Source of the DNA: Amoebophrya sp. A120
Taxonomy: Eukaryota; Protista; Dinoflagellata
Assembly (NCBI GenBank): GCA_905178155.1
Contig: CAJINV010000012.1
Coordinates: 2,870,353-2,934,352, forward strand
Direction of reading: 5' to 3'
Length of the DNA: 64,000 nt
Made by a program: the position numbers and the translations under genes. Shown here piece after piece: positions 1,440-59,330 of this stretch (position 1 is its first letter; the number at the start of each line of letters is the position of its first letter). A model generated the notes under the pieces. It ran no database searches. It was given only the letters and a program-made list of their open reading frames with translations, and was not told where the DNA came from.

Positions 1440-2084
1440 CAGGATGAATGGCGTTAGCACATCGTTTCTTTTGAAGGTGCGTGCCTGGCTAGTCGTTCTT
1501 ACGCCACCATCAGGGTCAGTGTGGAGACCGCTTTGTAAGGGCCCATCCTAGAGAGACCCGAATCGCACGGCGGATCCAGCGGTCGCCATTGCGCCAAACA
1601 ACCATTGACGACGGACCCGCGGAGGACCAGAGAAAGCCAAAGGAAGCGCTACACGGAACCGGAAGTCAGCTCGCCGGCATCTGCATTTGCGTCGCGATTC
1701 TCAGTGATTCTAGGTGAACGAATCGCGACTAAAAATTGAAGTATAGTATTTGGAATTGGCTGCCCTCACATGAAGGAAACTCTCGCTAGACTTCTCTCGA
1801 AAAAGATGACTCATTGCTACGCTCTCGTATGGTAAAAAGGGCTTCTCGCTTCCTCTCGCCGTCACCACCGCATTAAGCGCTCTTTTCCTTTTTCATACTC
1901 GTGGCCCTCGTGTGCAACTCAGACTCCTGACGCAAAGTAGAGTAAGACAGAGGGCCCGTCCCTCCGAGTTTGCGAGCGGACCACATACGTCGGCCACGAC
2001 ATCAACGAACACCTCGTCCCCGCCCCATCGTTTATCGTTTCTTATTATTTCACAATAACAATTGCGGCGACCACATAGATAGAG

Positions 2085-3585
2085 ACAGATAGGCCAGAAG
2101 CGAAGTAACGCAGCGCGTGGGGCAGGACCAATGCGGTCGGCCGCCCGCGCGCCGGCCGGGCCCCGCGGCGCCGAGGCCTGCGCCCTCGCCCCCGGGCTGC
2201 TCTGGGTCAGACAGGCGGATGCGTGCGAAAGGAATGCGCCGGCCGAGCGCAATACAGAACAGTGAGTGGCTGGGAGCGAGGGCAGGGCGGGCCGGCTGCC
2301 GGCGGGGTGTAAAAGATAAGAACCAACCTACCGCCGCCGAGTCCATCGATACATATGGGGAAAGAGCAAGGCTGTCCGTCCGCGCTCCGCCCCCTCCGTC
2401 CTGGACCGCACCACAGAAGGATGGAGCCAAACCCTTCAGGCGGGGGGCAGAAACAACAAAAAACCCGAACAGAGCAACCGGGGCCCGCCTCGCTCCCACC
2501 CCAGCTCTTCCTTGGTCGGGCCCGATGTCCGGCCATTTTTACGGCACGCGCGCGCTGACGTCCTTGTCACGGTACACGAAGCAAGCGCGTGGAGTTCCTG
2601 GCGTGGTTCTCGTCGCGCCCTTGCATTCCGGCCCAGGGCGAGAAGGGGGGCACCTCTGCACCAAAGCGGGAGCGACGTATTTCTTACAGAAGGGGGGCAC
2701 CTCTGCACCAAAGCGGGGCGAGAAGGGGGGCTCCTCTTACATTTTATCCTTATCCTGAGCAAAGACGCAGGTCTTGCAGGGTGTAGCGACTAAAGGGCAC
2801 TTTGCCACGGTGGAGGAACAACATGTGCACAACAGCGCTCTACTGGGCTGCGCAACGCAATGCGCCGGCGGAGTCTGGCGTCGGACACCGTAGAGGAAAA
2901 ACGCCGCGCCCAGGGAGTGCGGATAGCGTGGAGCGCGACCCTACTGTGGTGGCGCCCCCGAGCCTGATTGGCCCGATGTCCGGCCCATGTGTTTCCCCTG
3001 TGCCAAAGAAGCGCCCGCGCGCGGCGTTGCGGAGCGGCCACGACAGCGACCCAGGCGACCGGCAGGCGCCGCCGCGCTTCCCCCGGTGGGGGGCGGCGTC
3101 GGTCCGTGCACCGGCCTCGGCCGCCCGCCCGAGCGCTATAGGCAACACCAGGGCCAGGCCAAGGGGAAACCGTGGCGCCCTCGCACGCCTCCGCTGACGA
3201 CCGGCACGGCGTTCCCCCTGCGGCTGTTGCCCCCGCCGCGCTTTTCCTTCGCGCGGCCGGGCCGGCGCGGGCGTCGCCTTGCGGTGCTCGGCGAACTTCT
3301 TCCCGCTCCGAACCATTTCCGCGCGCGCGGAGTTGCGCGGGGCGCCCATAACCAGCGGGGGCCCCCCAGCCGTGTCACCCTGCCCCGCTTCCCCGCAAGA
3401 AAGCCGCCGACAATATCTATGCCGGAGCGCGCGGCGTGTGGCGGCGCCTCGCCGGCGGGCTCTAGTGCCCCGCCGGCCGCGGGCGCCCTCCGTCGTTCCC
3501 GATCGTGGGCGCACAGACCGAGCCCCGGGCCCCACACCACGGCGACGCCCGGGCTATCTAGTCACGCCGTACGTGGCCCATCTGT
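2085..3585. repeat. GC-rich non-coding island, possible non-autonomous transposon
   Basis: Sharp GC rise; internal repeats GGGGGCACCTCTGCACCAAAGCGGG x2 and GGCCCGATGTCCGGCC x2; 11/12 inverted repeat ACAGATRGGCCA at the edges; no TSD seen. Confidence 0.35.
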
Positions 3586-4885
3586 GTAAGGGCGCGGAGT
3601 CTAGTCCGCGCATTGACTACACGCGCCGCGCTCGTCGGCAACTCACATCCAGGACCGGGCACCACTACAAGAAGACGCAAAAAATTCAAAAGCGGCAGCG
3701 CGCTCAATCCCTTTGGTCTTGGTCAGCGCAGCGCAGACCTGCAACAAATATTGAGCACAAACTTATCTTCCGACAACACTGCTGGCAGAGTTGGAGTTCT
3801 TTTCGTCCAAGCCCAGGGTAGACCGTATTGAAACGGACAGAGGTTCTATTGATTCTGACCTTGCAGTAGATTCATATACAAAAACTTCATAAAGTAGCTC
3901 GGGAAATAGAATCTTCAATCGGTAGACGACTTCGTTGCCATATTAGAGGTGTATCTTTCAGTGCAACATGACGCAGCGCATGGTTTTTGCCGACTCATGC
4001 ATGCAATGCAAATGCTGTACTTACTGTCGATATTCTCGTAAGTTATCTTCATGAAATTCTTCATACATTCAAGCTAAAAAAGTGAAGCTACAACACTTTT
4101 CGTCCGCAACGAGTGAGATCATAAAGTCCAATAACAGAGTAAATACCACCGGTCAGTCACTAATTAGGGTCGCACACCACCTCCACAGAGGCGTCCTCGT
4201 CGAGATCGGCTACGTAAAATCAGGCCCAGATCGTATGGGGAAAATCAATCTATCACGGCAAGGCGCAGAGCGTAATTCTATCGTCTCTGAAGAAAAACAA
4301 GACCAGTAGCAAAGAGTAAGAGACGAAAAAAAATTCTGGACCAATAAAGCCTTTGGAAATAAAAGGGTAAAAACTAGTGGGTACAGATTCTACATAAAAC
4401 GAAAATCGGGTTCGGGACAATGTAGGTGACGTTTGCCGCTGTTGCACTTGAAGCTACGTACACCTAGTATTTACTCAGCTCTCGCTGGTGTCGCCACGAA
4501 GTTTGTTGCTTCTTCTCGAGAAAAGCTAGCACGTCGTCTCGCCAAAGAAACAAATCCTTTGGACGCGGGAACCGGAAGCCCGAAAAAATTATATCAGGTG
4601 CCAAAACACAGAAACTAGTCGAGAGTAAGTATCTGTGCGACGCCGAAAGAGAAAAAAAATTGTGGAAGCAAACAGTATCTGATGATGCTCCCGTCTTGTA
4701 AAAGGAATTGGGTGAGGTTTCAAGGTGGAATATTAAGCGAGAAGTCACTACGTACTAATGTCATCTGTCGAATAAGTAGCGCGACCAAAAACCGCTTTCC
4801 CCTGCTGAAGATGAAGTACGATACTCATCTTATCGGTGTAGCAAACACAAATTTCGTTCTTTCGCCGAATCATTTCACAGCATCT

Positions 4886-14960: not shown

Positions 14961-17900
14961 CTATCTTGGCGTCGTCCCGTCCATGTTGACATCCCCATCC
15001 TCTGTTACTTCCGGCGGTGCCATTTTGTAGCCGTGCTCCACCTATCAAGTGCAAAAATGTCTGGGTCTGGGAAAGTGCAAACTTGTCATGCAGATTTTTC
15101 ATGACCCACGAGGTGTGGAGTGCGGGACTTAGCATGACAGACTCTGCGAGGTCTCCGTCTCTCCCATGCCTATCCTGCATGAGAAACTGCCTTCCATCTT
15201 GGTCAAAAGTGGACAGCTTTTGGCACTCCTGCAACACAGATTTTTGCATGCTTCAGATTTACCATGACAAGTTGCAACCTCCCAGACCCAGACACTTTTG
15301 CATTTGATACCACCGTGAAAAACTGGTAGATTTTCTTCCGGAGCTCGTGTGCTGGTTTCAAGTCCTTCTTCGTGAACGAAGCTTTTGTGAAGGGGTCCAT
15401 ACCGTCGCCCATGGCGATTCGCTCCGCCGTGTCTCTGTTGACGATGTTGCCGGAAGGGAGCTCCACGGGATCGTTCATTACGATGTCCCTGATAGAGTAA
15501 CAGTTTTGGGTTTTTGCATGACAGATTCTTTTCCTCATTCGAGACCTGCATGCGAAATTTTCATTTTGGAAAACAAAAAAAAAACTTCAAAAAGTCGTAC
15601 ATTAACGGATCCATGTATTCCTCTGGTAGCGAGCCCACTTTCTGCTCGATCGCCGCCAGCTGGTCTTCCGCAGACCCCGTCTGCTCTAGTAATGCTTTGA
15701 CAAAGCTTGCGAACTCCTCAGACAAGTCTTTGCTTATCATGCCGTCGCGGCGGGAAATGCGGACAGCCTTTTCGAAGGTGTTGATGTTCCCCGCTCGAGC
15801 GTCGTTGATCACGTGGTGGATTACCTGTTTTAATATTTGATGTACGGGACAATAAATACGGTTGGATGTTGCGACGTCGTTCGTGCTGATTTTTCCAATG
15901 CGAAAACACATTGAGTTTGAGATAGCAAAACCTGCATCATTCAACATGGTAGTAGAACTTTCTGTACCTTATCCCTTTCTGTCCTTGCTATGACGACGAG
16001 CATCTCGATGATGAAAGTGAGCAGTTCCACCGGCTTGAAATGAAACTCGGCGTAATCTTTCTGCCCGCCTTGCTGCTTCAAATTCATGGACTTGGGGCCG
16101 ACAAGCCTGTGAGAGTTGTTGTGTCCTCGTTCATGCAATAATCATAATGTCCAATCCTGCATGACAGAAGCTATTTCTCATGCGCAGCGCTGCAACAGAA
16201 AAAATGTATCAAATACCTGTCCATGCAGGCATTCAAACAGTTCTGGACCATCTGCTGCAGAACCACGGATATCCTGTGCAAAAGTATCGCACTCGTAGTA
16301 ATTGCAGTCATGCATTACAAATATTTTTATCAAGGCAAATCCGCATTACAAATTCCATTTCTCATGTTTAGGAAATTTGTATTGCAATTCATACTAGTAC
16401 GATACTTTTGCAATGCATAACGGATTTTTTCGTCACGATATTACAGTGAAAAATGCCACCACCCCGGAATTTACAAAAGTTTCTCATGCAAAGTTTCCAA
16501 GTGAAAGCTTTTTGTCTTGCATGAGAGGACTACGAGCGTTTCTGATGCAGAATCTAGGTGCGCGAGCTATCTTTTGCATAACAGATCCGGCTACTGGTGG
16601 GCTCCTTTGCAACACAGATTCAAGCTATTCAGCATGGAAAATTTGTGATGCTGATACATGCAAGACGGGGAATGTTTCTATTGGAAAGGTTTGCAATATA
16701 AAGGGTGCCAAGCTTGGGGTAGGGGCATTTCTCATTGTGATACACGATTTCCGGTGTTTCTTTCACGATGGAGTGCAGGGTCTTAATCGTCCGGAACCCT
16801 AATTTCATGTAGGTGACGCAGTGCTCCTTGGGGTCTCTTCTGGATCTTCTGTACAAATCCTCGCCCTGCTCGTTCCTTTCGTCGTCCTCCATGCCACCGC
16901 GGTCGACGCCGACGCCTTTTATTTAGTGGAATTAGTGATGCAAAAACTACACGAAGACAGTGTCAAAGAAAATGAAAAATGCAGTTTATGCATGACAGAC
17001 ACAGAATCAATGATCACGTTCTTGAAAACACGCTCTATACCAGCCGCCGCCGTTTCCATCAACTCCTCGTCATTGATCTGCTCCCCTCTGGCTCTTCTCT
17101 CGGCCAACACTTTCCGTTTTCTTATCGATGCCAACGTGTCCATGCCCTCATCCAATTGCACCGTCGCATCCGACATCAGCAAGTTCAGGAACTTCAAAAA
17201 ATCGTCCTCCTGTTCGGATGCGAAATTTCTCAAATTTTTCCGGTGTAGCTCACTGGACTGGTTCCCAGAAATCAACAACCCGAAGAGTTCCATGATGGGC
17301 ACGCGGAGCTGGTATTTCAGCTGCATCCTGATATCGTAATAACTTTGTTTTGTTTTCTCCACCGCGTTGAAAACGAGCAAGCACGAGGGGATGATGTTCT
17401 GGACCACCGGCTTGAATTCCTGGAGTCTCGTCGCCCACCGCTGGGACTTGATCAAAAAGCTAATAATGTTCACCACTTTCCCCCGGGTACTCGGGTTCTT
17501 CACGTGGTCGCCCGCGCCGAGGAAGAAGACGAGCAAGAGTAAGAGACTGTCCACATCTACCCTTTGGTAAAACGGGTGCTGGGTCGTTGGTGGGTACTGC
17601 ACGTCGCGGAAATATTCCAAAATCGCGACGAGATTCTCCACCAAGCACGCCGGCAGGACCGACCACTCGGGGGAAACCTGCTTCGGGGGGATCGTCACAT
17701 TCGTGAACGCCGCTGCTGGTCTATCCGGGTTGTCGGCGAACTTCGGCTTGCATTCCGGGTAAGCGGCGGCGAGTAAGTACAGTTATGGGACTGTCAGGAT
17801 CGAAATCGACAAAGTCGAAAAATTTGTAATGCATAAAATGTAGAGCACGTATGGCCTGTGTTGGGGAGCAAGCAAATGAGACCGGTGGCAGGCCTGTTTA

Positions 17901-20900
17901 GGGGAAGGCGTTGTGCTGCCAGAGTACCATGACAAGAGCAGTCTTCTTTGCCCAAACAGCATGACAGACTGGATTTTAGTGCTTCCGAAATTTGTCATGC
18001 GCCACTTGGAAACTGAGGCTCCGACTGGTGTCGATTTTATGCATCACAGGTTTTTCGATTTTGTCAATTTCGATTCTGACACTCCCATAACAATGCGAGT
18101 AGATTTATGCCGTGGATCAACCCGGACAGGAATCCCTCCTGCTCCAACACCGTGCTGATGCACAAATGCTCTATTCAGGAACAAAAGTGTGTAAGTGTAA
18201 CTTTCTTTGAGGAACAGCATCACAAATATGCTCTACATGACAGAGAAACCTTGTCATGCATGGTTTGTATAGGGAAAACACCCATGAAAAGAGGACTTGA
18301 TGGCTGTCTGGCATGACAGGTGTAACTCTGTTGCATCTTCTGCAGCACAAATTTACACTTACACAGTTTTTTTCTTGCATATGCTCCCCGAAGCACTTGT
18401 CCGCTTTCTCCGGCGCTTTGTTCCACAGAGAAGAAAACGCCGCGACGTAGCACATGTCCTCCTTCAACACCGGGCAGGCGAGGCAGTTGAAGGATTTGAG
18501 TAACAGCGTGAAGATCTGCGTCGCGAACTTAAATTTCTGCTTCTGGTTCCCGTTCTCATCCAGCAAAGCCATCTTCAAACCGCTCTTCGCAAGCTTCACC
18601 TGTTCCTCGTCGCCCATTTTTGTTTCGGAGGAAAAATCGCCGAGTAACTTTTTCACTTCCTCGTCCACGGCGAAAATGCTGGAGTCTAACAACTGCCCCA
18701 CCGCGGAAATTTTCACGGGTCGATTCAACTCCAGTAACAGCCAGAACACGTTCAACCCGCACCCGGGCGTGGAATACCCGACTGTCCTCGCTTGCTGGAT
18801 CTGCATGGTTAACCGGGCGTCTAAGTTCTGGTGGAAGGGGATGTCCGAGTTGGACAAGGTGTCGATGAAGTGGTTTATCAGATACAAAAATGTCTGGGTC
18901 TGGAAACTTGTGATGCTAAAAGTGAATCGTAGACGGACTGCAATACGCAGCTATGCATGACAAATTTTTTGGCTCCCATGTCTTACGTATTCCGCATGGC
19001 AAACTGCGTTTTTGCATGACAGGTAAGAGGGCCTTTTCGTGCTTATGCAACACAGATTCTCGAGTCATGCCAGGCAAGCATGACAAACTTGCATTCTTCT
19101 AGTAGACCCAGACACTTTTGCATTTGATATGGTTCTCCTGCCCGCCCTCGTGAATCTGGTTCGCGCCCTTTGCGCGGTCGTCATTTCCCTTCAACATCTC
19201 GGCGAGCCAGTGAACGACCGCTTCCCGGCAGTCCTCGCCGGAACGCAGCTATCAACTGCAAAAGCATCGTACTTGTCCTAAAGTTGCAAACATGCATGAC
19301 AAATCTTCTTCCTAAGGGAAAAGAGCATTGGAGATTCCTTTTCTACTAATGCTGAGGGAATTTGTGATGCTATTTCTACTAGTACGTTAGACTTTTGCAC
19401 TTCATAGTAGCAGCGGATTCACCACGTTCAGGGTTTGCTCCATGACCTAGTAAATAAATTGGGTTTCGTTTCACTTTCGTTTCAAGATTATGCATGACAA
19501 AACACACTTCCACTCCACGTCTCAGCAACACAAGTTCACATTAGAATTATACCTGTCCCATGGTCCCTTGCAACGTTTTTTTCGACGCCTCCACGGTTTT
19601 CTGGGATTTTTTGGTCGCGTTTTCGAAGTGCATCGACCTCACGTCCGCTTTCACCGAGCGGTACAGCATGGTGTCCATGGTGGTTGGACAGAGTAGTGTT
19701 CCGAAAAGCGATTCCATTTGCAAATTGAACCCGTTAGATTTTTCCTGTCCAGCTTTCGTCCCGAACATAATCTTCTGTGCGTCGGGTTGGAACTGCTTGC
19801 TGCAGGTGGTGACGATTTTGTTCAGCAACTGCGATTTTCTGCTGATCAGACTGGTCAAAAACCCAACATCCTGCATTTTGTGGTCCGTGAAACACCTGCC
19901 CTTGATCCTCTGCATTAGTTGGTCCAACGCCGGTTGGAAGAGAATTTGTATCGCGGTGAGCTGGTCATCTGCCGGGTCTAGTTCATCACAAATCGTGGTC
20001 ACCAGTAAGTGGACGAAGTTTAGCGTTAATATCCGGTTCGGCACGGGTCCGCCGGGGGTTAGTGGCGTTGGGCAAAATAATTGGACCAGCAAATCCGCAC
20101 CGGCGACTTATCCTGAGTAAAAACGCCCCCACACCAGAGTCAAGATGGGGAATCTGCTAGACAAAATCAGCCAGCTTTGGTTGTTTCGCATGACAAGTTT
20201 GTCCGCGTAGTGTGATCCTGTTTAGGTAGTTCAGCAGCATCAGAGATATATCTTATCATGCTGATTATAGCATCACAAATCCCAAAACACGGCCAGAAAA
20301 TGCTTCTCATGGGGCTCCGCATGAGAAACTCTTTTGGCGTGCTGATTTGCATGACAACTCTGGGGCGAGGACGTTTTTGCTCGGAATACGACTGTGCTCA
20401 TGTTCATGTTACCGTCCGGGTCGCTGAACATTTCCGGCATATGGATTGCAAATATGTCTGGGTCTGGAAGGTTGGAACTTGTAATGCTAGCTTTCCATAC
20501 CTAAAAAAAAATCTGTATTGCATAACCAACAGAAGTCGCTGCAGCCTCTTTTGTGCATGCAAATACGCAGTTTCTCATGTGGATTGCGTATGAGAAAGCG
20601 TTCTCGAAAGTTGTCATGCTGGGTTGCATTCGGAGCTGTTTCCATCATCCACATTTCAGCATCACAAGTTTCCAGACTTGTGATGTTTGCATTTCATAAG
20701 GCATGGTCAAGACCAAATTCGCGTATCTGGCGAGCAAGCGCATCAAGTCCGGGATTTTGTCCTTCAGCTCTTGCTGGAGTTTGTCCTTCCTTGCGAAGTC
20801 CTCACAGCGGAGGAAGCACCCATGTAAATACTGGATCTGTTTGATCTGGTCCGCGTACAGTATGCCCAGTTTCGCCTCCACGATCAAGTCTGCGCGGTTG

Positions 20901-21756: not shown

Positions 21757-24700
21757 TTACAAGCACAAATTCGCCCCCGCCAAACTTCCCCCGCGTTTCA
21801 GCTTTGGCTTGTTGGCGCTCGACGCGGTGCTCTCCTGCCGGCGAAATTTTGGTTTCTCCGAGGACACCGCAGAAGCGAGTGAGGGTTGCGGCTGAGGAGG
21901 TAGGGCGGGTGGCACCCCTGGAACTAAAGACCCGCGTTGGTGGTCTTGCTGGAGTTGCTGTTGCGACGGCTGAAATTGGGGTGGAGCTGCTGCAGTTACA
22001 GGAGCTGGAGCCTGCATCTGTGGTGGCGGCATTTCTTCTACAGCCTGCATGAGTTGTTGTGAATGTGATGGTGGTGCTGGGTGTTGTTGTTGGTACGGCA
22101 TCGATGGGGGAGCAGGGTGGTGTGGTTGAAGGCCGGTGTTGTACACTGCTGGGGGCAGTGGAGGAGGTGCGGGGGACTGCATGTGCATTTGCGGCATCTG
22201 TGATGATGCTGCACCTACACCGGTATAGCTGCTAGTCGCGCCGTACACTTGCGGGTCGTACCTCGGCGTCACTTGCTGCTGCACTTGTTGCGATTGGCCG
22301 TGTGCAGGCAAAACTCCATTAGCGTTAAAACCACCTCCTGCACCATACGCAGGTGCAGCTTGTAGTCGGGTTGGTTGCTGCTCCGCCGCGCCGTACCGTG
22401 CGTGGTCGTAACGGTTGGATATTTGCTGTGGTCCCAAGTGCAGTTGTTGTCCCTGCGAAGAAGAACTACTCATCGTCATACCAGTCGGATCGACGAGGTT
22501 CACGGCTGGCGGAGCAGCAGTGACCGACATCGGCGTCTCTTGCAGGTGGTAATTATTCGTCGCGCCGTAGTGCTGCTTTTCCCCCGACTGAACAAAATAC
22601 GTTTTACTCGGCGTACGATTAGTAGTAGCTGGTGTGGAAAACTGCAGCTGCTGTGGGTCTGGCTGTGCGAGGTGCTGGTTCAGATTTCCTGGTTGCGTTT
22701 GCGGTGTTTGCAGCATGAAGTTCATTTGCGAAGAAGAAGCTGAAGCAGCGCCGACAGAAGCAGCCCCGACAGAAGCAGCGCCGAAGCTGTGGCGGCGAGA
22801 AGCGTCGTTGTGCGGCTCCACTGTCTGTTCAGCTGCACCTGCTGTGCCACCCCGAGTCTTGCTTTCGTTTCGCGAAGAGCCATTGCTTTGTAGTTGATTT
22901 TGCAGATTTTCATCCCCGCGCGGAAAATTCATTTTGTGCAGCTCCGCCGTGTTCATAGAGGACGCAACAGAGAAGTTCTGAAGATAATTTTCGTCGTACT
23001 TGTAGTAGTCGTATTCCTGTTCTTCCTCATCCTCTTCAAATTTGTGGTAGATTTTCTCCCGCAAAAATTTCTTCCCGTCGAACACATTCTCCGCCCCGTT
23101 CTCCCTCAAGTAGTCTTCAAACTCGTCATTCCAATCTGCGGCAATCCGCATGATTTCCGAATGAATCAACCGGAACGATCTCGCGTCAAGTAAGATCATG
23201 TCTTCGAAAAATCGCGAAGCTCCTGGTGGTGGAGTTTCACTTCGCTCACCACCGCCCTGCAGGACAGAATTCTTGTTCGCTGCAACCACGTCGAGCAAAG
23301 GATTCTTCGTGAACAGTGGCGGCTTGAGTAGTCTCTTCTTAAACGCCATCACACTGCTGTTCTGCGACTTTCCCGGGCTACTCCCATTTCCCGTTCCATT
23401 CGTGGGTAAAGAGCTGCTGATGTGGTTCATCAGGTCAATGCTGTTCCCGTCCATGACTTTTTCCCCCTTTTTCAAATTCAACCTCTTTTCCGCTTCCACA
23501 TTGGCCGCAATAAATTCGGGGATCACGATTTCGTTCTGGATGGTCTTCAAAAACTGAAACGCCTGCATCGCCAGCTGATCCGCCGTTTCATTCTTCGGTA
23601 AATCCACGCCGAACATCTTCTTGCACTTCCGTTCGAAGAACTGTCGCGTCCACACCGCAGGTAGTGGCCCGGGGGCAATCGCCCGACACAGATCCGTTTG
23701 GGCGAATTGCTGCAGCGCTTTCCCTAAATGCTCCACTTGCAGTGTTTCGATCGGGGAGCAAAAGTGGCGGGCGTTGGACCAGCGAAGGGGGGATTTTTTC
23801 ATGTTGTTGTTCTCATCACCATCATTGTCATTTCCTGATGCTGAGGACAACACTGCCACTGGGGAAAGCCCGGTCGTTCCCTCCTCTCCGTTCCAATCGG
23901 GCGGGAGCTGCAAATCCCGACCCTCCCACTTCTTCTCCGTGATAAGCTCCCCCGATGCAGTTCTTGGCTTCAAATTCGAGTGGATGAAGTAGTAGGGCGG
24001 GGGAAGCAGTAGGTCCTCTTCGTCCAGCGCAGCTTCTTTTCCCTGCTCCTTTTCCCCTACTTCCGATAGTACCGGTTTCTTCGCCAAATCCAGCCCTGGT
24101 AATTGCGGCGGAAACCCCACTTTCTCGTAGGGGTAGATGAACGCCAACGCACCACTACAGACGTTCAGGATCGCGAGAATAACGACATCGTCTAAGGACA
24201 TGCGGTTGCCGTAGAGCCACAGAGAAGTTTTATCCTTCCGGTTCTCGTACTCCTTATCGATGGAACTCCAAAGGTCGAGGAGCTTTTTGATGAAGGTCGG
24301 GATCTCCGTTTTCCGCATCGTGTCCATCTGCTCAAGGGTTTTCAACAACTCCTGCTTTCTTTCCTGTAATTCGCTCAGCTTCGCTTCACACTCGCTTTCC
24401 GCAGTACCATACTGGGCTTGTTCCTGCTCTCCTTGTTCGTTGGGTCGTTCTTTCTGCTGTGAAGACCACGAAGAGGGTCTGCTCTTGCTACTCCTGCTGT
24501 TATTCGCATTCACCGCCTTGTTACGGGAGTTCCGCAAGCTCGTCAGTTCCTCTTCCAATTGTGAAATCTCACTTTCCACCTCGTGGTACTCGGTCAGCGC
24601 TTTCTATCCTGTGTAAAACCATCCCCGCACCATAGTTGTCATGCAGATCTGCATGCTCAAAATGTTTGTCATGCGGAGCCCCAACATGAGAAGCGCCCTC

Positions 24701-27700
24701 TACTCGTGCTTTGGATTTTCTAACGCTCCAATCAGCATCAGAGGCTAGATCTCTCATGCTGCTGAACGAGCTAAACAGGAGCGCACTGACTACGAGACCA
24801 AACCTGTCATGCGCAACAACCAAAGCCTTTTGATTTGTCTAGCAGATTCCCCATCGTGACTATGGGGTGGGGACGTTTTTGCACAGGATACTTCCGTCGT
24901 GTTTTTCAAGCACACGTTTACTTTCACTACCGTCATTAAAATGTTTACCAGCCCGCCCATCACAAATTTCGGGAGCGGCATCCCCTCGGGGCAGAGGTTG
25001 TGGAGGTAGCGGTGCTTGTCGCGAAAGTTGTTCTCGTCGTATGGAGGAAGCTCGGAGTCGTCGATTACGATGTCTTCGTCTTGCTCCTCGATTTGGGAAT
25101 CTTTATCCGGAACTAGTACAGAATCCGGAGCCTCCTCTTTGTGCTCTCCCTCCTTGCTGACAGCTCCACCCACTCCTACCGCCGGCGCCACGACCTCTCC
25201 GCTCGTCCCGCGCTTCGGCGTCGCTGCACCAGAACCGGGTAGTAGTTCTTTGGAAGTCTTCTTTTTGTTCGGAACTGCCCAGGGAGAGGTGGGGCGCTTC
25301 GGTAATCCGCAGGACTTCGGGGAGTCGTCGTCGTCGTCATGCGCTGCAGTGATTGGAGGTTTTGGAGTCGAGGGGACCGAAACAGGAGGTTTGCTTGCTT
25401 GATGTCCCACCGATGGCTCGTTTCCCGTTTCTTTCGAAATCGGACTGGAACCGACATCCCCGTTTGTCGCGTTGTCCACGGGCATCGTTTTGAGGCTTGT
25501 CATGCCGCTGCTGGATGACTGCTTCTCGATGGTGTTCATCTTTCCGTCTGTAGTTTTTGTTGTACCAGCCGCGTTCTCTTCTCCACTGTCGACTCCCAAA
25601 ACAAGCGGGACAGGTTCTGTTGCCTGAAGTTGTTGTGCCTGATCAGCACTACTAGCTTTATTTTTCTTGTTCCTCTTTTCCCTTGCAATCTTCCTTTCCT
25701 CCAACTTTTTTTTCCGCAACTTTTCCCTTTCGTCATTCAAAAACTTCTCTTTCCGTTTTTCAAACTCCCGCTCTACTACTTCCTTGTCCGGCTTTTCCAG
25801 AAATTTCGCGAAATGCGACTCCCCGAACTCCTCACAGAGCAACTCCAGGATGTCCGAGGACTCTTCCAAATACCTACCGTTGTAGATAATCGCGGGCGTG
25901 GTGCAATTTTTCCCGACTTTCACCACCCAATCCGGCTTGTCCTCCATGTCCGACACGATAATTTGGTGCGGGATCTTCGCCGCTTTCAACAGCGCATCCA
26001 CAGCGGAAGACACCGAACAGGACTTCGCCAAGAGACCGCCGACCTCCTGACCTAACAGCCACAAATGGTCGTGATCTTGCGCACTACTAGTTGTACCCGC
26101 AGATGAGCCTGCCGCTGTCATCGGAATCGATTTTCCCCGGATATCTCCTCCACAGAACAAGTACACCACGTTTGGCTCCGGATTGTCAATGCAGGTCGGC
26201 GTGAAATCCACGTTCGTGCCGTGCAAGCAGTACTGGTCGGGGGCGATCTGTCCGAACGCGATTTCAATGTCGTAGGGGCGGATCTGGTAGTTATGCACTT
26301 TATTCGTCGTTATCAAATGTAAAAATGTCTGGGTCTGGAAGGATGCGAACTTGTAATGCGTGTTGCGGATCTTACAAAAATCTGTGTTGCATGACTTGCA
26401 AAAGATCCCCATTTCTAGCCATGCCGAGGGGGCATTTGTCATGCAGAATAGGCATCACCAAGGGGCTGCAGAACCTGTGATGCTCGGCCCTGCATTCGAG
26501 ACTTGGCGGAGCTTGGAAAAACTGCATGACAAATCTCAGAAGCTTCCAGACCCAGACACTTTTGCAATTCATAGTCGTCCCCATCACCGTGTGTCTTTGC
26601 CCACCGAGCGACCGGTCGCACTTGTTCTTGATCACGGTGGAAAAAATGGAGGACGTCGTCGTGGACAGGTTCGCCGCCCGCTTGGAATGAAATTCGTTTT
26701 CCTTACTTAGCTTTCCCGATTTTGATAGTCCAGGGTGCAGCTGCTGGTCATGGTTTGTTTGTTGAATATGATTGTCAGAAAGCTGCACATAACTCTCGAC
26801 CGCCACCGGCTGTTGCTGCTGCTGCTGTTGTTGTTTCATCACCGCGGAAGTGGAATTCATCAACAGATCTTGTGACAACTTCGCAGAAGAAGTCAGCAGC
26901 TGGTCCTGTTTCTGGTTGTTGTGCAGGACTAACCCGAGGACTTGATTCAACTGCATAGACACCTTCCCCAACGTCTGCTCGATCATCTGCATGAAGTTCT
27001 GAATTTGGCTGTACTGCTGCTGATTCAACTGCAACTGCTGGAGAGAGACATCAGATCCGCTCGTCACCATTAACTGCTGATTAGAGGTGGAAGACGGCGC
27101 AGCTGCCTCGCCTTCGTATGTCATGACCTGCTTGTTCATACTCGGCTGAATGAAATGATCACCGTCCATAGACTTCACCTCCAAGCCCTCACCTCCCAAC
27201 TCCGCCAAGTCGTCATCCCCGATGTCAGAGCCGATCTCCACAAAGTCGCTGATCTTGTTGAAATTCGCAAACACCCGGGCGGGTCGGAAACCGTCGGAGG
27301 ACGCGGGGATCTTCTCCATCGTGTCGCCAAACCGCAGCTTGCCGAAGACGATGTCATCTCGAAAGTACCGGTGGGCGGCGCAAATTTCATCGTGGTACAC
27401 CCCGTCCCGGCCGGTGAAGGTGAGGGAGAGAGCGAAGTCCGTGTTGTTGGCGAGATCCGCCATGTACACTTCCGAGATATCAGCCAATGGAGAATCCTTC
27501 GTAATCACGTGCTCGGCGACGCAGACCGCAGTTACGAGAGGGATTTCGGTGACCTGAAATAAAGTTCATTTCGTCATTCGGGTTTTGCAGTGCAGGTGAA
27601 TTTTCTCATGCGAAATTAGGACTAGAACCAACAAAGTTATCTTGTACCAACAACGGCAGCCATTTCATGTAGGTTTCCCCTTCCAAAGTCTGCTCCATTT

Positions 27701-29243
27701 TCAGCACACTCAACCGCACCTGCGGCACGAAGATGTGATTACAGCGCAAATTCCCTAAGCGGAACAGCAACACGCGCTGGTTGTTCCGGGTGGTCACGAG
27801 GGCTTGATTCGCGAAGACGACCGCGGTATGCATCGCAACTATGTCTCGGTGTGGATGATTGGGGGAATCTGTCATGCAAATTGTACATGACCCGCGACGC
27901 CTGTGATGCATGCTCTACTAACTAGCATCTCAGCTTTATCAACGGAAGCCGAGGCTTGCTCATGCCTACCCCGCATGAGACATGCCCCCTTCGGACGGTA
28001 AAAATCTGCGTACCTTTTGCTGCTCATGCAATATAGGTTTTTGTATGCTCGAAAGTTAGCAACACAAATCCCATTCTTTCTAGACATCCAGAGACACTTG
28101 CAATGCATACGCGGCACTCGGGTGCTGTATTTTCGTGACCATGATGGAAAACGCGAGAACGTTGATCAAGATCCCGGCGTATAGATTGCAAAAATGTCTG
28201 GGTCTGGAAGATTGCAACTTGTCATGCTAAATCCGAAGAATGCGAAAATCTGTGTTGCATGAGGGCCAAAAGCTGTCCACTTTCGACCAAGTTAGTAGTA
28301 GTAGTAGTACCATTTGACTCCTGGCGGGTGGGCGTTAGAACAGATTTAGCCTCTGCCAATACCTGGGCGTCGACCAAGCTGGGAGGGAGTTTCTCATGCA
28401 GGATAGGCATAGCAGAGACCTCACAGACTCCGTCATGCTAGGTCCCGCATTCCAGACCTCATGGGTCATGGAAAACCTGCATGACAAGATTAACACTCTT
28501 CCAGACCCAGACATTTTTACAGTTGATACGGCGAACTGTTGAACCGTCGCGAGAAAAAACAGCCCCATCAGCGGTTCATTCTCCGTATCAAATGTAAAAA
28601 TGTCTGGGTCTGGAAGAATGCAACTTGTGATGCTGCATTTGGATTCCAAAAAAATCTGTATTGCATGAGTACCAAAGGGAATGCAATCCTTGCTACGCTG
28701 AGAAGGCATTTGTCATGCCGAATACGCATCAAGAAGCCCTCAAAAAATCTGTATTGCTAGGGTATGCATCACAGACATCATGGCTCATGCAAAACGTGCA
28801 TGACAAGTGTCAGAATCTTCCAGACCACCCAGACATTTTTACATTTGATACTCCGAAAAGTCGTAGGGTAAAAACTGCCCGTAGCCCATGGTAATGACGT
28901 GCGTGACCGACCAGATCAGCGCGATGCCGAAGTAGCTGGACTCCGTCGCGGGAAAATTCGTCCCGGGCACTTGGATGTTGTCTTTCACGAAGGGGAGAGT
29001 CAAAAGCGCGAAGGAGAGGCAAATGGATCCGTAGAAGGCGATGGCGTACACCGCGAGTCTTTGGTAAGAGGTGTCCAGGATCTTGAAATACCAGGAATCA
29101 AAGGTCCCTAAAAACCGCGGATCGGCTAAAGTGGACTTTGTCTTCGTCGGGCGGACGTACTTCGTCTTCGTTTCCTCCTTGGACTTGTTTTCTGCAATGA
29201 TCTGCGCTTTCAGCGCGGAGGGGAGATAGCGAGCAAGTTGCAT
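21757..29243 (-). CDS. Inward-rectifier K+ channel (Kir) with C-terminal CLIC/DHAR-like GST domain and Q/P-rich tail (about 2000 aa)
   Basis: TM1-pore (SVTHVITMGYG)-TM2; Kir cytoplasmic motifs VVFANQALV, LLFRLGNLR, QTLEGE, HVITKDSPL, YFRDDIVFG; GST-N KIPHQ..DMEDKPDW..TPAIIYNGRYLEESSDILELL; GST-C WLYGNRMSLDDV; joins are in frame. Confidence 0.8.
24605..24890. mobile_element. Introner family B, 286 bp
   Basis: DR CTTTC/CTTCC. Confidence 0.9.
26311..26573. mobile_element. Introner family A, 263 bp
   Basis: DR GTCGT; joins MGTT-NKVH. Confidence 0.9.
27827..28109. mobile_element. Introner family A-like (diverged), 283 bp
   Basis: DR CGCGG. Confidence 0.85.
28180..28528. mobile_element. Introner family A with nested insertion, 349 bp
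   Basis: DR CGGCG; contains a 78-bp insert with a 9-bp duplication. Confidence 0.9.
28292..28369 (-). mobile_element. Nested retroposon-like fragment with (TAC)n tail
   Basis: Flanked by TCGACCAAG at 28283-28291 and 28370-28378; sibling element 56233-56499 has a single copy. Confidence 0.65.
28586..28850. mobile_element. Introner family A, 265 bp
   Basis: DR CTCCG; highly similar to 33543-33804. Confidence 0.9.
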
Positions 29244-31540: not shown

Positions 31541-37598
<6,058 letters not shown>

Positions 37599-53716: not shown

Positions 53717-54172
53717 GACTGCTTTTGAGTTTGAACTTTGTTTCCAAAAACAACTATACAGTACTTCTTTATCAAATTGTGGAAACAAGATAATCTTGTT
53801 TCCACCAGAACCGTAGCGATACACATGAAGATTCTTGCCACGCTGTGATAAAAGATTAGATCATACACGTAGAGACGTTTCGCGGGCGGCATTGCATTTG
53901 TGTGTGGCTTGGCTCGACTGCTTTTGAGTTTGAACTTTGTTTCCAAAAACAACTATACAGTACTTCTTTATCAAATTGTGGAAACAAGATAATCTTGTTT
54001 CCACCAGAACCGTAGCGATACACATGAAGATTCTTGCCACGCTGTGATAAAAGATTAGATCATACACGTAGAGACGTTTCGCGGGCGGCATTGCATTTGT
54101 GTGTGGCTTGGCTCGACTGCTTTTGAGTTTGAACTTTGTTTCCAAAAACAACTATACAGTACTTCTTTATCA
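53717..54172. repeat. Tandem repeat, period 199 bp, about 2.3 copies
   Basis: Units start at 53717, 53916 and 54115; apparently identical. Confidence 0.9.
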
Positions 54173-54279
54173 GGTTGTGGACATAACTACGAGGTGTACA
54201 ACAACAAATCAGGTTGTGGACAAGACTACGACGTGTTATCAGGTTGTGGACATAAGCAAAATCTATCCTCATACGATCA

Positions 54280-57164: not shown

Positions 57165-59330
57165 CGGTACGCGCTGAGGCCTAGAATTATTCGTAGTAGC
57201 ATCGTGATTGGGGTCAGACCTTGCGCATGTGCCCGGGCGTGGTGCCCTCGTGGAACGGCTTTTTTCACACTGCGGGAATATAAGTATTTTATTGGCCTAC
57301 GCGCGCCATACCATGCGGGTTGGCCCTTCGGAGTCTTCTGGTTTTTGCTTTTGTCTTTTACTAACATCTTTCCGGAATCCCGGGATTTCCGGAATCCCGG
57401 GATTTCTCGTGAAACTGGTGAAAATGTGAAAAAGTTGCATTCTTTTGACTGCTAATCACGACGGTGTGCACTCTTTTTCACGAGTATTTTCACCGTGAAA
57501 AAAATCGTGAAAAAACCTACGGACTGCGTCGCGAAACGCGATGCTACGGGCCTTGTTTTCGGAATTGGTTTGTCCTGCTTTTCCGCGATATTTCGCGAAA
57601 GCCGCGCAGCCGAATCACGACGGCATGGCCCTTTTTTCACGATGTGTCTCGCCGTGACACAAATCGGATCAAACGCTGCGACTTTATGTCGAATCCCAAT
57701 GGTATAGCGCCTGCGCCCGGAATTGGTTTCCGTGGTTTTTCGCGACCGCCGCGCCTGGGAGTCGCGACGGTGCGGCCCCTGTTTCACGGCGCGCCCCCCC
57801 TTGCAACGCTTCGCGCCAGGCTTGTGGCTTGCATCGATCGCGCTAACCCGCACCACGGCGCATGTCGGCAGTCTTTCCGTTGCGCGCCCGGGCGCGTGTC
57901 TACTTTTTCCGTGGTGGCCCTTGCCGGCGCGGGCCAGGGTCCGCACGCTCTAACAGCACGGCTTCGACTGTTCGGCGCGCGCACTGCGTGCCCTGGCACA
58001 TGTGGGCGCCAGCGCTTGGGGGCAATATTTTTCCGCGCGCGTAGTACGTGCGCCGGCGCATGTGGGCAGTATTCCCCACCACAGTGTTGGGCTTTGCCTG
58101 TCGCGTGGAATGCCTCTCAGGTTCTTGCGTGTGCCTTCGCCTTTCGCTTGGGTTCTGGTTGGCTGTCAGTGCGCCGCCCTGGCGTATTGACAACCAACCA
58201 GAAAAGGTTGTCGCTCTGGCGTATTGACAACCAACGAACACAAAAGTCAAGCGGTCTCCCTAACCAACATGGACACCAGTGACAGCCCAACAGGGCCGCT
58301 GCCCCTAATTCTTGCAGAGGCCCCCCGCCCGCGCAGGCCGCCCCCGCCGATCACCTCGGCACGGACGCGCGGGCAGCATTTCCACGTCGGCGGCCGCAGG
58401 CAGCGTGTCCAACTCTGTGCCCGCCGTCCCGCGTCACCGTCGCCGTGTGTTCAGGCGTTATGCGCGGGCCTTTGCGTACGTCTGCGCGCCGTGCTCCAGC
58501 CGCGTATTTGCGGTTGTTTGACCCCGCGCAGAGGCCGCGGCGGCGCTACTGGTTGCGCCAGCCGCGTATTTGCGGTTGACCCCGCGCAGAGGCCTCGGCG
58601 GCGCTACTGGTTTACTTCAGCCGCACGGGGCCGACCCATGAATGTGCTGCCACTTGGGAGGGGCAGGGCAGGGCGCCAGCGCGAGCTCCCTGCCTGCGGC
58701 AGTGGGGGTGAATGCGGGGCGGGCCCCCGCGGCGTTTCCCCTGTTGCGGGCGCGGGGCGATGTACGCGACAGGAGCCCTTGCGAGTGGGAAAGGAAGTCG
58801 AGGGACCCCCTCGAGCGCCAGGAGTGAGGGGCGGGGGCCCCCTGCGGGCAGGAGAGAAAGGTGGGGGGGCCCCTTGGGCACCAGAGGTGGGTTCCAGGAG
58901 TCCGGGGCGGGGGCCCCCTGCGCGCGGGAGAGAAAGGCGGGGGGCCCCCTTGGGCAGCAAAGGTGGAGGCTGGGGGCCCCCTGCGGGCGGGAGAGACTTA
59001 CCGCGGAGAAGGACGGGGGCCCCCTTTGACCTCCGGCGGGCGACCCGGGAGAGGAGCGGGGGCCCCCTGCGGAGGCGGGATGCCCAGCGGGCGAGAGGGC
59101 GGGGGGCGGGGGCCCCCTGTTTCACCAGGAGGGCGGCCCGGGTGAGGAGCGGGGCCCCCCTGCGGAGGCGGCAGGCGGAAGGGCGGGGGCCCCCTGCGGA
59201 CGCGGGGTACGCAGCGGGTGAGAGGGCGGGAGGCGGGGGCCCCCTGCTTTCCCCGACGGTATGGCCGACGCAAAAATAGTAACCCTCATCGTAGCATCGT
59301 GATTAAAACTCTAGGCCTCAGCGCGTACCG
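57165..59330. mobile_element. 2.17-kb GC-rich non-autonomous TIR element
   Basis: Perfect 21-bp TIR CGGTACGCGCTGAGGCCTAGA (57165-57185 and 59310-59330); internal GGGGCCCCCT arrays; no credible ORF; TSD not identified. Confidence 0.7.

Follow-up and report, generated by a model that had tools for sequence, protein, structure and literature searches.

The window, that is, the whole 64-kb stretch of DNA analyzed here, belongs to Amoebophrya sp. A120: a window exon matched an A120 protein over 247 amino acids with 100% identity, compared with 67% for the A25 orthologue. All of the long host frames in the window lie on the minus strand. The gene and the element under study, with its flanking repeats, are as follows.

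21757..29243, minus strand: host gene, with a single 1973-codon open frame once introns are removed in silico
28586..28850, no strand assigned: introner element of family f0 (the commonest), 265 bp, with TAT...ATA ends, interrupting the coding sequence of the minus-strand gene
28581..28585, plus strand: left copy, CTCCG, of the 5-bp target-site duplication
28851..28855, plus strand: right copy, CTCCG, of the 5-bp target-site duplication

The 1973-codon frame was obtained by removing five elements, each together with one copy of its duplication, and one predicted GT-AG intron. When element 28586..28850 was left in, a stop was reached at codon 134, and none of the six possible registers of the element was GT-AG. 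From the reading frame, which needs exact removal, we infer that the element is probably spliced. Read coverage of the host gene was zero in three raw-read runs; the RNA read evidence given below came from runs X14, X6, and X12, with run X13 yielding 18 reads. The N-terminal part of the host gene (window 27648-29243, minus strand) resembles what we take to be a potassium-channel pore with the signature TMGYG, and the element sits ∼10 codons after this signature. A Pfam search with two exon pieces of the gene gave no match. The gene model was trained on the window and recovered five of the eight GT-AG introns shown by RNA.

Elements of this kind number 51 in the window, where they span 12,298 nt, or 19% of the sequence. 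A larger loci set combined the window with 147 partly overlapping loci (602 kb) from one other assembly, JACKZZ01; these were fetched by the commonest terminal repeat from the approximately one-quarter of the metagenome collection that was scanned, which biases the set toward family f0. The JACKZZ01 loci carry the same element families as the window, with best hits mostly 79-95% identical. A search blind to element interiors returned 391 distinct elements, as opposed to 0 in five shuffled windows, and these fell into 26 clusters whose interiors do not align. The criterion of this search was TAT...ATA ends with a 5-bp duplication, so the sharing of both is partly built in. The target duplications are 5 bp long and random in sequence, showing no target preference, and the 782 ends start with TAT(C/G) and carry A at 0.88-0.93 at positions 11-13. 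Because TAT...ATA ends and the 5-bp duplication are found in all families, the elements form one superfamily, and the families, described as unrelated in the initial annotation, are probably related. At positions 4-8 of the ends, change across all families was faster than in spacers on tip branches (0.124 versus 0.084), and the two ends of a given copy are often unlike at these positions despite the invariant TAT and A-run flanks.

The elements are the published introner introns of Amoebophrya sp. A120 (PMC7789003). The organism is the same, and the TAT ends, border repeat, and removal without GT-AG are common to both descriptions; in the text of that report, the TAT start is followed by ∼seven variable bases and an A run, the border repeat is short (3-5 nt), a transposase is not reported, and U1 snRNA was not detected. 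The ends of A25 introners are of another kind. Removal could be followed in RNA at a second gene of the window.

32034..35342, minus strand: DEAD-box helicase gene with six elements of three families, starting at 32034, 32682, 32890, 33543, 34186, and 35081
34186..34462, no strand assigned: family f3 element; in the family consensus, six of seven motif sites are on one strand

All six helicase-gene elements are skipped exactly, together with one copy of the duplication, in RNA (joints in run X14 and X6 contigs). The six junctions showed 4-6 nt of joint ambiguity, as expected of a border repeat, and removal of the elements leaves a 517-residue stop-free frame. A GT/GC-AG register is present in only 6 of 50 window elements. 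Predicted exons are interrupted by 272 of 306 elements in the window and loci. At window 16270-16742, two elements of different families are separated by 19 nt; both are skipped in RNA, which retains eight letters between the joints as a micro-exon (626 reads, run X12).

Several further features were noted alongside the elements. Swollen elements of 0.5-1.1 kb (L071:7016-7987, L025:632-1465, L051:3862-4492, L050:571-1051, and L019:505-1608) contain motif-free inserts and keep their ends and duplication. That in L019 has a terminal repeat outside the 26 clusters, yet its motif sites at 43, 75, 144, 177, and 211 are placed as in family f6. Long TAT...ATA candidates were considered as coding elements and discarded, being nested inserts or chance pairings with no coding frame of note. 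In the helicase gene, a 38-nt segment (window 33437-33474) is matched with two differences by ∼600 X12 and 200 X14 reads, which then diverge and probably represent a paralogue. Window 2000-3800 and 57450-59300 have a G+C content of 61-64%, look non-coding, contain internal repeats, and are almost devoid of motif sites, and window 53779-54260 holds a local duplication with a short palindrome and tandem copies.

The octamer TGTSATGC, to which the initial annotation had drawn attention, was found as 151 exact copies on the two strands of the window, compared with 5.40 ± 2.31 in 100 dinucleotide shuffles (maximum 12), which bears out its enrichment over a shuffled control. The 51 elements contain 133 of these copies, with at least one in 47 elements; the remaining 18 comprise 9 in GT-AG introns supported by RNA or annotated protein, 2 in exons, and 7 in predicted introns or unassigned non-coding DNA. 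A search without a prior over the 391 elements returned the motif as the 8-mer shared most widely, in 21 of the 26 clusters. Family-weighted expectation maximization, from which the terminal 22 nt of the elements were excluded, extended the octamer to a 12-mer, aAYYTGTVWTGC(W); the octamer is real, and the full motif is longer, at ∼12 bp, with an A/YY lead-in. Octamer positions 1, 2, 3, 6, 7, and 8 each carry 1.1-1.8 bits. Among 463 full element copies in the window and JACKZZ01 loci, 461 have at least one motif site and 424 at least three, and an introner holds about five copies. The density of sites scored with a position weight matrix (PWM) was 19/kb in elements, a value with some circularity, the training set of the matrix having been element interiors (the count of exact octamers is free of this), 1.4/kb in predicted GT-AG introns, 0.45/kb in intergenic DNA (43 in 95 kb), and 0.26/kb in predicted exons (46 in 177.5 kb). 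The impression, first gained by eye, that the motif is rare in exons and intergenic DNA was therefore correct. The sites in predicted exons were slightly skewed by strand (13 versus 33).

The sites in element 28586..28850 are arranged as follows.

28626..28633, plus strand: motif core (PWM score 15.8 bits); first site pointing inward, 41 nt in from the left end
28657..28664, plus strand: motif core TGTATTGC, 31 bp downstream of the 28626 site as its direct partner (15.1 bits)
28711..28733, no strand assigned: motif core (13.6 bits) with the degenerate inverted partner GCATCAAG, spacer 7 (28711/28726)
28750..28773, no strand assigned: inverted pair, both strong (14.0 and 14.4 bits), spacer 8 (28750/28766), with an arm mismatch at positions 4 and 5
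28783..28805, no strand assigned: degenerate arm GCTCATGC with the strong site 28798 (16.5 bits), spacer 7 (28783/28798)

The three inverted pairs are those picked out in the initial annotation, and all were recovered in place with spacers of 7, 8, and 7; the direct partner at 28657 was absent from its list. Four further strings that it quoted from elsewhere in the window are likewise present, one of them 1 nt away from the position given (34329, not 34328). Site 28798 lies 32 bp from the 28766 site and is the first inward site from the right end, at 46 nt.

Across 19 family consensuses, 24 direct pairs were 31-33 bp apart, compared with 2.5 expected (maximum 9 in 2000 nulls), and a direct pair at 30-33 bp was present in 16 of the 19. 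Strong head-to-head pairs at 15-16 bp numbered 7, compared with 1.5 expected, and occurred in 5 of 19 families. When weak partners were counted, GCA followed the consensus site (n = 88) at a spacer of 6 in 6 cases, 7 in 24 cases, and 8 in 7 cases, and at other offsets from 0 to 21 in only 0-4 cases each. The inverted arrangement with a spacer of 7 or 8 that had been proposed as the organizing unit does exist, with a spacer of 7 dominant (24 of 88), but the main rule is one of direct repeats at 31-33 bp on one face of the helix, near 10.4 bp per turn. Of the same-direction spacings proposed earlier, that of 31-33 bp is general and the spacing by helical turns holds, whereas those of 39-40 and 54 bp come mostly from one family.

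Scanning of periods from 7 to 16 bp in the 19 consensuses gave peaks at 10.4 bp for direct, 10.5 bp for convergent, and 10.4 bp for divergent pairs, with 0, 0, and 4 of 300 nulls, respectively, as high. The peak remained at 10.3-10.6 bp in a subset of 11 families picked by eye as less related. With direct pairs at 30-33 bp treated as rigid, 0 of 1000 nulls reached the one-face statistic; when dyads were also made rigid, it was reached by 4 of 1000 (18 families) and 7 of 1000 (11 families). It was weaker for single orientation classes with both pair types rigid (19 to 264 of 1000 nulls). The one-face curve peaked at 10.4 bp and was near zero at 11, and one helical face is kept over about 100 bp in the elements. 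The sites are also phased to the element end. The first inward site was placed 33-35, 41-45, or 53-56 nt from the end, as charted in a histogram of 926 ends, and the phasing statistic R for inward sites, 0.77, was reached by 0 of 5000 nulls; outward-pointing first sites were less clearly phased (R 0.22).

The motif bases are constrained. Trees built for 12 families (405 copies) gave a tip rate of change of 0.035 and an inner-branch rate of 0.012 at fixed motif positions, compared with 0.084 and 0.040 in spacers, i.e. 2.4-3.4-fold slower, whereas the degenerate position 4 changed at the spacer rate (0.081 and 0.045). A mutational cold spot matching the motif is unlikely given the tolerance of position 4. 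Constraint did not relax with tip length: the ratio of motif to spacer rates was 0.36-0.39 in each of the four quartiles. These data support the earlier proposal of a cis-code shared among families, here under purifying selection and across families whose interiors do not align. That the motif is functionless and was simply inherited from one ancestral repeat unit is highly improbable. In line with common descent, the ends are common to all families, which are probably related, and some families share stretches (f4/f10/f11, f7/f8, and f1/f13). Common descent does not account for the excess conservation, for which position 4 serves as an internal control, or for site order and orientation, which vary among families while phase is kept. 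Moreover, the spacers between direct sites have an identity of 0.30 against a background of 0.25; being barely alike, they indicate that the direct pairs are not fresh tandem duplications.

Two readings place the activity of the sites in RNA, either as arms of the strand-symmetric hairpins suggested in the initial annotation or, following its remark on the RBFOX element UGCAUG, as targets that an RBFOX-like protein would bind in single-stranded form. Such a role has some points in its favor: element 28586..28850 folds end to end (-105.8 kcal/mol, z -7.95), although this fold is set by the terminal repeats, and position 5 shows co-change in 2 of 25 dyads (family f2, AT 21 and TA 9; family f7, AT 5 and TA 2), each possibly one inherited event. 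The complementarity of the arms over the 25 dyads (878 copies), on the other hand, was equal to that of shuffled pairs at seven of eight positions, including position 4 (0.409 versus 0.415 shuffled), with 0.732 versus 0.711 at position 5. Motif orientation showed no preference relative to the gene, with 650 sense and 609 antisense sites in 272 exon-interrupting elements. Families insert both ways, as illustrated by f3 (9 versus 12), which has six of its seven consensus sites on one strand; in f9, both strong sites are on one strand. TGCATG overlaps only a minority of sites, 180 of 2196 on the motif strand and 399 of 2196 on the other, and the period is 10.4, not 11. With neither strand preference nor covariation of the arms, both the hairpin and the RBFOX readings fail; action in RNA is largely refuted and, in our estimation, very unlikely. 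A search of Rfam gave 0 matches.

The 10.4-bp period, the indifference to strand, and the independent drift of the arms point instead to a protein on double-stranded DNA. It might be supposed that the motif, rather than being recognized by a protein, is an intrinsic DNA-shape or nucleosome-type signal, with an A/T lead-in and then G/C at each helical turn. The period and the AAWTT lead-in would suit such a signal, and introners of other species are related to nucleosome linkers in the text of PMC9860276. The information profile of 1.1-1.8 bits at six positions of the octamer is, however, that of base-specific recognition, and the sites recur each three to five turns rather than at every turn, making a pure shape signal quite unlikely.

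An array of sites for a DNA-binding protein, another suggestion of the initial annotation, is the best reading of the constraint and helical spacing, but the tyrosine-recombinase geometry attached to it is not supported. Tyrosine-recombinase core sites consist of inverted arms flanking a spacer of 6-8 bp, within which exchange takes place, and they leave no target duplication. In the consensus sites, GCA at a spacer of 6-8 was found in 37 of 88 cases, usually with a weak partner, and a strong pair was found in 5 of 19 families. The 5-bp duplications of random sequence argue against core sites of this kind, as does cutting at a distance of some 30 bp or more from the closest usual site; cryptons lack target duplications according to the text of PMC12130899.

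With somewhat better than even confidence, we interpret the array from its sequence features as a set of sites for a sequence-specific DNA-binding protein needed in transposition. On one helical face, neighboring copies of the protein would be separated by three turns, with some pairs facing head to head over 7 bp; bending or scaffolding of the 110-320-bp element by these copies would bring both TAT ends to an integrase-type transposase, the enzyme that would generate the 5-bp duplication. Both the phasing of sites to the element end and the sharing of the motif by families with one end chemistry support a role in transposition, for which transposases that bind internal repeats set a precedent (PMC1636448). 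A need to load one and the same protein would explain why the motif is common to families with different terminal repeats. The binder might be an extra domain of the transposase, or a separate protein encoded by an element or borrowed from the host; since motif and terminal repeat are dissimilar, the end-binding domain is a less likely candidate than a second domain or protein. The idea that the element end is itself a degenerate copy of the motif looked good when weighted by copies and failed on permutation (696 of 2000 permuted matrices fitted as well), and 3 of 38 consensus ends scored above 9 bits with the motif matrix. Pfam detected no transposase or integrase domain in the 117 of 155 long open reading frames scanned, those on the predicted gene strand, and no integrase-like DDE transposase was detected in the 0.67 Mb of window and loci. 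Under the transposition interpretation, the ends and duplication would guide splicing, with no part for the motif, and GT-AG introns that bear the motif would be eroded elements.

Such introns are common in two window genes, where 8 of 10 GT-AG introns (eight shown by RNA joints and two by a contig end and annotated protein) contain the motif, without terminal repeats, at 17 sites compared with 0.9 by shuffling. Their spacings (direct at 32-33 bp; inverted at 16, 17, and 48 bp) are element-like. Four of them are listed here.

15489..15600, minus strand: GT-AG intron lacking terminal repeats, two direct sites 32 bp apart (contig-end evidence)
16107..16216, minus strand: GT-AG intron, three sites at 16, 17, and 33 bp, G|TAT start and a 5-nt boundary repeat
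19447..19552, minus strand: GT-AG intron lacking terminal repeats, two direct sites 33 bp apart
34711..34892, minus strand: GT-AG intron lacking terminal repeats, three sites (14, 18, and 14 bits)

By its element-like site spacing, start, and boundary repeat, intron 16107..16216 is the best candidate for an eroded element. A GTAT start was found in 12 of 16 motif-bearing GT-AG introns versus 23 of 58 motif-free ones. The duplication signature of the motif-bearing introns was small (2.5 versus 2.1 of 5), their inward sites were unphased to the ends (R 0.11), and comparison with the element families revealed no family-level relic in them beyond the motif. Among predicted GT-AG introns in JACKZZ01, 11 of 58 had sites, 14 in number compared with 4.5 expected, with mild clustering by locus (147 of 5000 permutations). 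Motif-bearing GT-AG introns may be eroded elements, or they may mean that the binder belongs to the host and acts after an element has inserted.

The presence of the motif in 8 of 10 ordinary GT-AG introns would also fit a host role in intron marking. A host DNA-binding or chromatin protein would read the motif after insertion and mark the stretch as an intron for co-transcriptional removal; the phased arrays would let elements be spliced either way round, and some ordinary introns would share the mark. We regard this reading, the main rival, as unlikely. It gains from the element-like spacings in window introns that have neither terminal repeats nor family homology, from the unrelaxed constraint on long tip branches, and from the strand blindness observed, which a mark at the DNA level would have. 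Furthermore, with a GT/GC-AG register in so few window elements (6 of 50) and U1 snRNA not detected in the account given in the text of PMC7789003, some unrecognized splicing signal must exist on this reading. It loses from the 47 of 58 good predicted GT-AG introns in JACKZZ01 that have no site, and from the phasing to the transposon end, which is simpler for an enzyme acting there. Because the sites are at least 30 bp from the junctions, they cannot alone set these to the base. Older copies also gain motif changes: among 69 copies whose duplication is mismatched, the motif had an extra change of 0.0085 (95% interval, -0.001 to 0.019) and spacers one of 0.0129 (0.001 to 0.025), a point estimate of two-thirds of the spacer value that fits both neutral decay and continued constraint. 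In its strongest form, which we consider more doubtful still, the phased 12-bp code would be read on chromatin by a host protein as a strand-blind definition of introns in DNA geometry, a license to enter any exon in either orientation that some ordinary introns have kept or gained. If true, marking by the host would be a new way of defining introns.

Protein copies on one helical face that would scaffold the ends for a transposase remain our preferred interpretation. Introner elements were already known (PMC7789003); the conserved, helically phased internal array of sites appears to be new. The text of PMC7789003 describes terminal and direct repeats only, and contains no internal motif, spacing rule, or binding site (the logos of Figs. 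3, S19, and S25 lie outside this scope). Twelve of the 14 supplementary files of PMC12130899 contain no sequences and gave 0 matches to four spellings of the motif, and the available text of PMC12501133, 10.1101/2020.10.14.339549, PMC9860276, and PMC11282704 yielded no mention of it. The sole literature match in an Amoebophrya paper proved to be an oligo-dT adapter in the part of PMC6482013 concerned. Within the text of the open-access literature, as distinct from figures and subscription papers, no description of an internal motif of Amoebophrya introners was found. Viral contigs gave 0 matches to the terminal-repeat pattern, and eight loci to the paired-motif pattern, none with an element-like array, which were taken as chance; two IMG/VR contigs (L148:600-645 and L150:600-645) have in common a cluster of TGTCATG copies inside 45 nt.

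A120 has tens of thousands of such introns. A phased and constrained site is a defined bait for its protein and a first handle on the introner machinery; a shared site shows how a single machine could serve families whose terminal repeats differ; and motif spacing and motif loss offer a way to separate a role in transposition from one in splicing.

Several known systems can be compared with the elements. In the text of PMC12130899, A120 introner family 38 is given homology to an integrase-like TIR transposon, with "5-bp TSD, TA/TA Termini," and all families here show the 5-bp TSD and TA/TA termini. Among the 40 of 58 A120 rows covered there, the family lengths 106, 149, 209, 252-260, 278, 305, and 319 match elements described here. 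Ginger1 and Ginger2-Tdd, as presented in the text of PMC2836005, are similarly TIR elements with an integrase-like enzyme, and the TDD-4 and TDD-5 duplications are 5 bp; they differ in having TGTNR ends and mostly 4-bp duplications with a target preference, whereas the A120 elements have TAT ends and no preference. For a host binder, the apicomplexan AP2 sites TGCATGCA and GCATGC (PMC13734140, in the text seen) are a lead only, by analogy. These are alveolate DNA-binding sites that have the letters CATGC in common with the A120 motif, but they are palindromic promoter elements, whereas the A120 motif is a non-palindromic 12-mer that is rare intergenically (0.45/kb).

A functional parallel is provided by other MITEs, in which the transposase binds repeated internal motifs, e.g. 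Emigrant/Lemi1, with CACTA, hAT, Sleeping Beauty, and pogo cited too in the text of PMC1636448. Emigrant resembles the A120 elements in being a non-autonomous TIR element with repeated internal motifs in both orientations and a proposed role for these in the transposition complex. In Emigrant (PMC1636448), the motif corresponds to one half of a terminal repeat and is found close to the ends, whereas that of A120 is unlike the ends and fills the interior. Unlike Emigrant, moreover, the A120 motif is common to families with different terminal repeats, keeps to one helical face, and is also present in ordinary introns.
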